This document shows, in pieces, positions 48,001 to 49,498 of a DNA stretch of 64,000 nt (position 1 is the first letter of the stretch; each line of letters starts with the position of its first letter). The stretch spans positions 116,560 through 180,559 of the forward strand of contig CAVPOM010000008.1 in assembly GCA_963707025.1 (NCBI GenBank). The letters run 5' to 3'. Made by a program: the position numbers. This DNA is from an uncultured Verrucomicrobiae bacterium (GTDB taxonomy: Bacteria; Verrucomicrobiota; Verrucomicrobiia; Limisphaerales; Palsa-1400).

Positions 48001-49498
48001 CCGCCTGGGATTAGACGTCATAGTAGAGATGGAATTCGTAGGGATGAGGGCGCAGGCGCAGGGCGTCCACCTCTTTGCGCTTGGCCGCGATCCACATGTC
48101 CAGGAAGTCGGTGGTAAAAACGTCCCCTTTGAGGAGAAAGGCATGATCTTTTTGCAACAGATCCAGGGCCTCGCCCAGGCTGGAGGGGACTTGCGGGATT
48201 TTTTTGAGGTCTTCCGGCGGCAGTTCGTACATGTTTTTGTCCATGGGCTCGCCCGGCTCGATTTTGTTCAGGACGCCATCCAGCCCGGCCAGGAGCAGGG
48301 CGGCGAAGCAGAGATAGGGATTGGCGGCGGGATCGGGGGGCCGGTACTCAATGCGCCGGGTTTTGGGATTCTCACTGTAAGTGGGGATGCGGATGGCGGC
48401 GCTGCGGTTGCGGGCGCTGTAGGCCAGGTTGACGGGGGCTTCGTAGCCGGGCACCAGGCGTTTGAAGGAGTTGGTGGTGGGGCTGCAAATGGCGCAGAGG
48501 GCCTTGGCGTGTTTGAGGATGCCGCCAATGTAATAGAGGGCCATCTGGCTCAAGCCGGCGTATTCCTTGCCGGCGAAGAGGGGCCGGCCGTTTTTCCAGA
48601 GGCTTTGATGGGTGTGCATGCCCGAGCCGTTGTCGCCGAAGAGGGGCTTGGGCATGAGGCAGACGGTCTTGCCGTGGCGGCGGGCGACGTTTTTGATGAC
48701 GTATTTGTAAACCATCATGTTGTCGGCCGTCTTGACCAGGGTGTCGAAGCGGAAATCAATCTCGGCCTGGCCGCCGGTGGCCACTTCATGGTGCTGGCGC
48801 TCGATCTTGATGCCCAGTTGTTCCATGATCAGGCACATCTCGGTGCGGATGTCCTGCTGGGTGTCGTGGGGGGCGACGGGGAAATAACCCTCCTTGTGGC
48901 GGATTTTATAGCCGAGGTTGGGGGCCTGGTCCCGGCCGCTGTTCCAGATGGCCTCCTCCGAGTCCACCGAGTAGAAGGTGCCGTTGCATTGGGCGTCGAA
49001 CTGGACGCTGTCAAAAATAAAGAATTCGGCCTCCGGCCCGAAGACGGCGGCGTCGGCCAGGCCGGTGGAGCGGAGGTATTTCTCGGCGCGCCCGGCGATG
49101 CCGCGGGGGTCGCGGGTGTAGGCTTCCTTGGTGCCGGTCTCGGCGATGGTGCAGGTCAGGGAGAGGGTGGGCACGGCGCAAAAGGGGTCAATGAAGGCGG
49201 TGTCCGGGTCGGGCATGGCCAGCATGTCGGAGGCCTCGATGGATTTCCAGCCGCGGATGGAGGAGCCGTCAAAGCCGTAGCCCTCGGCAAAGGCCTCCTC
49301 GGTCAGCTCGGAGATGGGCAGGCTGAAATGCTGCCAGGTGCCGAAGGTGTCAACAAACTTAACGTCAATCATTTTGGCGCCCTGCTGTTTCGCCAGGGCC
49401 AAAACGCTTTTGGGGGTGTTCATGGGGGAGGATGGGATTTTTTGGGGTTTAGCACGGACAGCCCCCGCCACGCGCCGGGCGGGAAGGGGCGAAAATCA

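Follow-up and report, generated by a model that had tools for sequence, protein, structure and literature searches.

In the window, by which we mean the whole stretch of 64,000 bases of genome G000 that was analysed, a gene for a type I glutamine synthetase of 470 amino acids (glnA) lies on the minus strand at 48011..49423. It stands behind glnB, which encodes a P-II protein (49496..49834, minus strand; NCBIfam P-II model), and in front of dnaA (46210..47574, minus strand; TIGR00362 and synteny), which serves as the downstream anchor of the arrangement glnB-glnA-dnaA, called locus A below. A gene for an ABC-type ATPase (45157..46176, minus strand), identified by synteny and by the Pfam ABC_tran match of its G019 orthologue, comes after dnaA here as in most A loci of the order. 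The spacer between glnA and dnaA (47575..48010) holds a DnaA-box-like 9-mer at 47904-47912. Such 9-mers are not enriched across the window (6 matches, with 5.1 expected by chance); within the family, 16 of 16 spacers contain at least one, as compared with 5 of 16 stretches of dnaA coding sequence of three times the length. Elsewhere in the window, at 39805-42408, a gene that looks like a DNA cytosine methyltransferase is followed by a gene for 314 amino acids; judging from their translations, the two are probably a restriction-modification pair.

The product of glnA scores 684.8 bits against TIGR00653 (cut-off 429), and its closest solved structures are glutamine synthetases. Furthermore, the tyrosine in the loop, a mark of adenylylated GlnA, is kept in the five GlnA copies that were compared, and a GlnE with two domains over cut-off is encoded on contig C3. 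The enzyme is thus a type I glutamine synthetase of the beta (adenylylated) form.

G000 has two glnA copies of this type, the second being on contig C4 (492714-494126, minus strand). The two are identical at 1411 of 1413 bases, the only differences being silent C/T changes at positions 810 and 1005 of the coding sequence (window positions 48614 and 48419), and the proteins are identical over all 470 amino acids. The BLAST block common to both copies (1415 bases, 48009..49423, minus strand) starts at the ATG and ends two bases after the TAA, and the flanks are unrelated, so that the near-identity over the coding sequence reported in the survey's finding is borne out. Another two-copy gene of the same genome, with a frame of 423 amino acids and a CxxC motif at its start, is found on C12 (248928-250234 and 341119-342425; 99.4% over 1307 bases); there, the block extends about 24 bases past the start codon, and the outer flanks are unrelated.

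We searched 31 genomes of family f1, which the survey calls Palsa-1400, and drew gene maps of 41 stretches, which show four contexts of glnA. Besides locus A, these are locus B (glnK-amtB-glnA), locus C (glnK2-amt2-small ORF-glnA, in G002) and a solo copy in genus g1. The survey had spoken of two old loci, next to dnaA/glnB and next to amtB; the second copies of G000 and of G002 lie at neither. In G000, glnK-amtB is on C6 with no glnA behind it; the C4 copy, which follows a pfkB-family gene and has a sigma-54-type motif of its own, is the genus-specific solo locus of g1. The second copy of G002 is the one at locus C. In G016 (L036:657-874) we found the remnant of a third glnA at locus C, which has lost about 1.2 kb from its interior without a change of frame; it is closest to the B copy of its own genome (86.8%).

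Both loci A and B are present in genera g2, g7, g8 and g10 of the family as well as in families f67, f62, f28, f63, f38 and f10. The conserved synteny that marks long-lasting concerted evolution is therefore seen in at least six families. On the other hand, glnB lies directly before dnaA, with no glnA in between, in 15 of the 29 family genomes with a dnaA match (31 searched), and two of these 15 have as few as 5-6 contigs. A second copy is not required, since roughly one half of the family has a single one, and the survey's claim of homogenisation "across the family" is right in that homogenised pairs are real but goes too far, the A slot being empty in 15 of 31 genomes. A piece of the 3' end of glnA is kept in the glnB-dnaA spacers of G006 and G007 (scores 37 and 31, with shuffle maxima of 29 and 26), and no remnant was found in the other 10 of the 12 empty spacers tested. 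Remnants in two of 12 spacers weakly favour a loss of copy A, rather than its repeated gain, as the origin of the empty slots. With this query, no glnA of the GSI-beta type was found in G008, G009, G013, G003 and G020, among which G009 and G013 (98% and 95% complete) carry glnB immediately in front of dnaA. Roughly one in two of the genomes sampled from the order gave no match either; genomes of this kind may use another type of glutamine synthetase.

In the order as a whole, 142 of 301 sampled genomes have this glnA type, 24 of them with two or more matches; 12 of the 20 multi-match genomes outside the family were fetched. Their A and B copies are 99.9% identical in G133, 88.1% in G167, 86.9% in G273, 83.2% in G190, 80.8% in G212 and 79.0% in G234. 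G067, a genome of one contig in which glnB-glnA is not followed by dnaA, has an A-B pair of 96.2%. The pair of G101 consists of B and C loci (90.8%), and the flanks are swapped in the pair of G109 (90.5%). In the class outside this order, about 126 genomes were sampled, and 29 of them gave a match, with one match per genome. The arrangement glnB-glnA-dnaA is found there in single copy in G331, one of four genomes fetched, which makes A the older locus. DnaA is 67-79% identical to the DnaA of A loci in other families.

If the loci are old, one would expect copies to resemble each other by locus. Instead, it is the copies of one genome that pair: in the family they are 89.6-99.9% identical, and each informative pair is more alike than the best match to another genome over the same columns. 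The values reported earlier were reproduced for G029 (98.7%), G022 (97.6%), G001 (95.0%), G002 (93.4 and 94.8%), G016 (92.3%) and G019 (93.8 and 89.6%). For G025, which had been put forward as an exception, the identity of 71-74% was confirmed; the comparison is not one of A with B, however, as the A slot is empty and the second copy sits in an unrelated context. This pair (a B copy and a foreign copy) was dropped as uninformative, and so were that of G091 (64%, foreign copy) and that of G204, a pair of 100% in which one member is a collapsed contig of 1438 bases with nothing but glnA on it. In G017, G024 and G025, stretches of 122-125 identical bases were dropped as well, being overlaps of the assembly graph.

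Trees give the same picture. In the 34-row tree, from which rows shorter than 500 bases were left out, copies are sisters in six of seven two-copy genomes, the pair of G016 lying in an open fork with G015. [quoted passage not shown] A clade of A copies is rejected with DNA (a cost of 3364 log units, p-AU = 8.9e-6) as well as with protein (1145 log units, p-AU = 2e-39), in a set without G002 and G101 (locus C) and without G018, G109 and G177 (locus uncertain). Both the sister pairing and the rejection of a locus-A clade that had been described before were thus recovered. Four-way site patterns that group copies by genome outnumber those that group them by locus by 282:1, 252:0, 212:3, 82:0 and 98:0. 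As a held-out test we used G439, found later: its A and B copies are 87.9% identical in nucleotides and share 454 of 470 amino acids, with 79.8% nucleotide identity to any other genome. Some pairs behave differently. The A and B copies of G212 are not sisters, its B copy pairing with a third copy at 96.8%; the pair of G234 does not resolve in the 75-row tree or in the protein tree; and the A copy of G167 groups with that of G136.

Could the copies be alike without recombination, through a common codon bias and selection on one enzyme? In G000, glnA does have 96.5% G+C at fourfold sites, and in the weakly paired genomes the silent sites are near background: in G167, G273, G190, G234, G212 and G439, fourfold-site identity is 0.50-0.61, within the between-genome range of 0.38-0.64. 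In these six genomes the case for pairing therefore rests on amino acids, and conversion there is old or rare. For the four closest pairs, however, codon usage alone predicts a fourfold identity of 0.70 (G000), 0.49 (G029), 0.54 (G133) and 0.50 (G067), and the observed values are 1.00, 0.97, 1.00 and 0.91, respectively. Furthermore, pairing mostly holds at codon positions 1 and 2 and in protein trees, and the P-II paralogs next door do not converge. The P-II genes of A and B operons in one genome are only 70-74% alike, and in the P-II tree 27 A rows stand apart from 17 B rows with one change; glnB of the window is not homogenised with the P-II gene of locus B. Convergence is refuted for the close pairs, possibly contributes in G190, G234 and G212, and is highly improbable as an explanation of the whole.

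The silent sites also bear on the age of the loci. None of 230 fourfold sites differs between the two copies of G000, and when G000 is compared with G017, a sister species in which both loci are present, the fourfold difference is 0.158 for glnA, 0.160 for dnaA and 33 of 167 sites for pfkB. The loci are hence older than the likeness of the copies.

Within the genes, the likeness is patchy. In 7 of the 13 pairs tested, identical runs of silent sites are longer than in shuffles (p < 0.05), as with a run of 591 nt in G029 and one of 415 nt in G101; no significant tract was found in the other six. Together with boundaries at ATG and TAA and with gene ends that remain specific for the locus, such tracts are what gene conversion is expected to leave. 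In genus g10, glnA bases 1404-1410 sort by locus. In G017 and G018, glnA starts with MNNTP...ALAK at locus A and with MNTP...ELAK at the solo locus. In a nine-copy alignment of the genus, both copies of G000 have a mosaic of the two at their 5' end (49394..49423, minus strand in the window): the first codons match the solo type in lacking the extra Asn, and LAL at codons 8-10 matches locus A. Two-way transfer would be the simplest reading of this mosaic, which suggests that transfer in G000 may have been non-reciprocal.

These observations also weigh on another explanation, namely that each lineage independently re-copied its glnA into an empty slot in recent times, with no lasting exchange between loci. 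The empty A slots in 15 of the 31 family genomes would provide room for this, and that glnA has reached new places can be seen from the solo locus of g1 and from locus C, which is linked to amt2. But an exact coding sequence would then have to be inserted time and again at one and the same pair of junctions, in at least six families, and one copy event should not give patchy tracts together with locus-specific ends. Moreover, the solo locus predates the split of G000, G017 and G018, and yet the pair of G000 is nearly identical. The two-way mosaic of G000 largely refutes such independent duplications, which we consider very unlikely.

Finally, within-genome likeness may be inflated by the assembly, if paralogs have been collapsed or cross-polished. 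Short-read bins do break inside glnA, and the G204 pair mentioned above is a case in point. There are also the swapped flanks of G018 and G109 (L043, G018:C153; L114, G109:C70). There, what lies upstream at the second locus runs through glnA into dnaA; either the assembly was misjoined at the repeat, or a real crossover took place. Small indels inside glnA, namely a 78-base in-frame gap in one copy of G017 (L041, G017:C83) and a 26-base duplication in G021 (L068, G021:C493), are probably assembly errors at the repeat. Nevertheless, pairs of 92-99.9% are found in genomes of 1-18 contigs (G016, G067, G029, G133 and G000), and a collapse already presupposes near-identity. The repeats of G000 (at least 500 bases and 90%), which from their translations are mostly mobile elements or internal protein repeats, argue in the same direction: many of them stay at 90-98%, which shows that similar copies have not been merged wholesale in this assembly.

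We also compared four public runs, X1 to X4, all of them available as contigs (unpolished unitigs); X1, from a near-identical strain, is too thin to show the two differences. In the unitigs of a close relative, the depth in X3 is 48.4 for glnA and 19.6-21.6 for its flanks; in X4 the values are 34-40 and 18-27, and in X2 8-11 and 3-6. The dnaA unitigs, our control for the doubled depth of glnA, are at single depth; unitig depth as such is no copy number. The relative in X3 and X4 carries the G017-type 5' end of glnA. In both runs the dnaA-side unitig ends at 48038, which would fit a branch of the graph at 48009 if the words were 31 long. An artefact may lie behind the last fraction of a percent of identity in G000; as an account of the pairing in general it is hardly credible.

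We then asked what the loci have in front of their genes. A sigma-54-type motif (consensus GG-N10-GC) is found upstream of the P-II gene in 20 of 24 B loci and in 1 of 20 A loci. Four genomes of genus g1 also have it upstream of their solo glnA. Outside the order it is present at two of four single-copy loci, including the glnB-glnA-dnaA one, which suggests that locus A lost the motif after the duplication. The B or solo copy would then be nitrogen-induced and the A copy steady. A sigma-70 scan near glnB was not used, as it gave 3 sites with 1.5 expected by chance. Between amtB and glnA, most of the 30 loci folded have a strong G+C hairpin (for example L063:6555-6678 and L067:6552-6675; also L050, a C locus), and one purine-rich loop word is common to seven B or C spacers of the family. 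Rfam gave three matches on eight loci, all far below cut-off (E = 0.39-0.71), and none was accepted; G000 has the loop word 13 times, and nothing marks these as a repeat family. Possibly, the hairpin is an element that processes or stabilises the mRNA.

In summary, we are confident that recurrent gene conversion between old, unlinked glnA loci is real, order-wide and patchy in this large group of soil and peat bacteria. The concerted evolution of glnA claimed in the survey's finding is supported by synteny and phylogeny, the P-II genes, the protein tree, codon bias, the unitigs and the held-out G439. Conversion is episodic, and its rate varies strongly among lineages, with pair identities of 79-99.9%. 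The history may have been as follows. A glnA gene would have been duplicated near the base of the order, the ancestral locus A losing its sigma-54-type promoter in most lineages and locus B having one; in genus g1 the second copy would be the solo gene with its own promoter of this type. The coding sequence would be the only homology left between the loci, and exchange would hence stop at the start and stop codons. Homologous recombination, by a route that we infer to be of the RecA type, would copy tracts that range from a few hundred bases up to about 1.3 kb in both directions, with episodes frequent in G000, G133 and G029 and rare in G190, G234 and G212. Both copies would probably be kept as one enzyme under two regimes, housekeeping and nitrogen-limited, presuming that the promoters function and both copies are expressed, and a dispensable copy would be deleted.

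Why conversion persists is a separate question. Neutral exchange between long homologous glnA genes would suffice, and P-II, a third of the length of glnA and more diverged, would escape it. Alternatively, selection may keep two promoters for one protein: if A and B subunits co-assemble in one dodecamer under one GlnE/P-II control, divergent copies would interfere with each other, and conversion, perhaps GC-biased, would be favoured until a copy is deleted. We regard such a selective benefit as possible, though rather doubtful. There is a weak hint of GC bias: in family f1, the fourfold G+C of glnA minus that of dnaA is +0.034 in two-copy genomes (n = 9) and -0.005 in one-copy genomes (n = 12; p = 0.025), where kin are not independent and expression is a confounder. 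If the selective reading is true, the unconverted P-II genes, the identity range of 79-99.9% and the many losses make a natural test of why tuf-like homogenisation persists.

The glnA case has controls built into it, that is, a neighbouring gene that is not converted, sister lineages with a single copy and rates of conversion that differ, and can therefore test explanations by dosage, by paralog interference and by neutral exchange. In this order, glnA does not track locus orthology. As the gene breaks short-read assemblies, a bin of this kind that seems to lack glnA may be showing an artefact.

Multiple glutamine synthetases are known, but GSI, GSII and GSIII, or GlnA1-4 of actinobacteria, are old divergent paralogs. 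The likeness to our case is that there is more than one such gene per genome; the copies described here, on the other hand, are near-identical and all GSI-beta. Another familiar pair is that of the two psbD copies of cyanobacteria, which are differently regulated. In the titles and starts of abstracts that made up the literature searched, most subscription papers being outside its scope, we found no report of concerted evolution of glnA. Among the protein genes of prokaryotes, concerted evolution that is long-lasting has been reported as rare, with 26 genes that include tuf, psbD, amo/hao and archaeal glnB (PMC6053082); the words glutamine, glnA and Verrucomicrobia are absent from the main text of that paper, whose species list may bear on the sampling of this order. 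Going by its main text and tables, glnA is an addition to the tufA/tufB-like genes outside these 26 cases. As with tufA/tufB, its two unlinked copies stand in conserved contexts and pair by genome, conversion recurs, and there are many losses specific to a lineage. It differs from them in being a metabolic enzyme, in being confined to one order in our sample, and in that the promoters in front of the copies are of different types, as many as four types of locus take part, and identities go down to 79%. Syntenic paralogs homogenised over an order are also seen in psbD/psbA of cyanobacteria, in amoCAB, hao and cyc of Nitrosomonadales, and in tkt, dxs, ftsH and fla (PMC6053082, Table 1), and several products in that table are homo-oligomers, as is glutamine synthetase. 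Whereas amo/hao are converted as whole operons, here only glnA is converted and the adjacent P-II gene is not. A further counterpart is glnB of Methanococcales (PMC6053082, Table 2), likewise a nitrogen-assimilation gene, which is under long-lasting concerted evolution. Our case is the reverse of it, with P-II paralogs that keep to their loci and a glnA that is homogenised.
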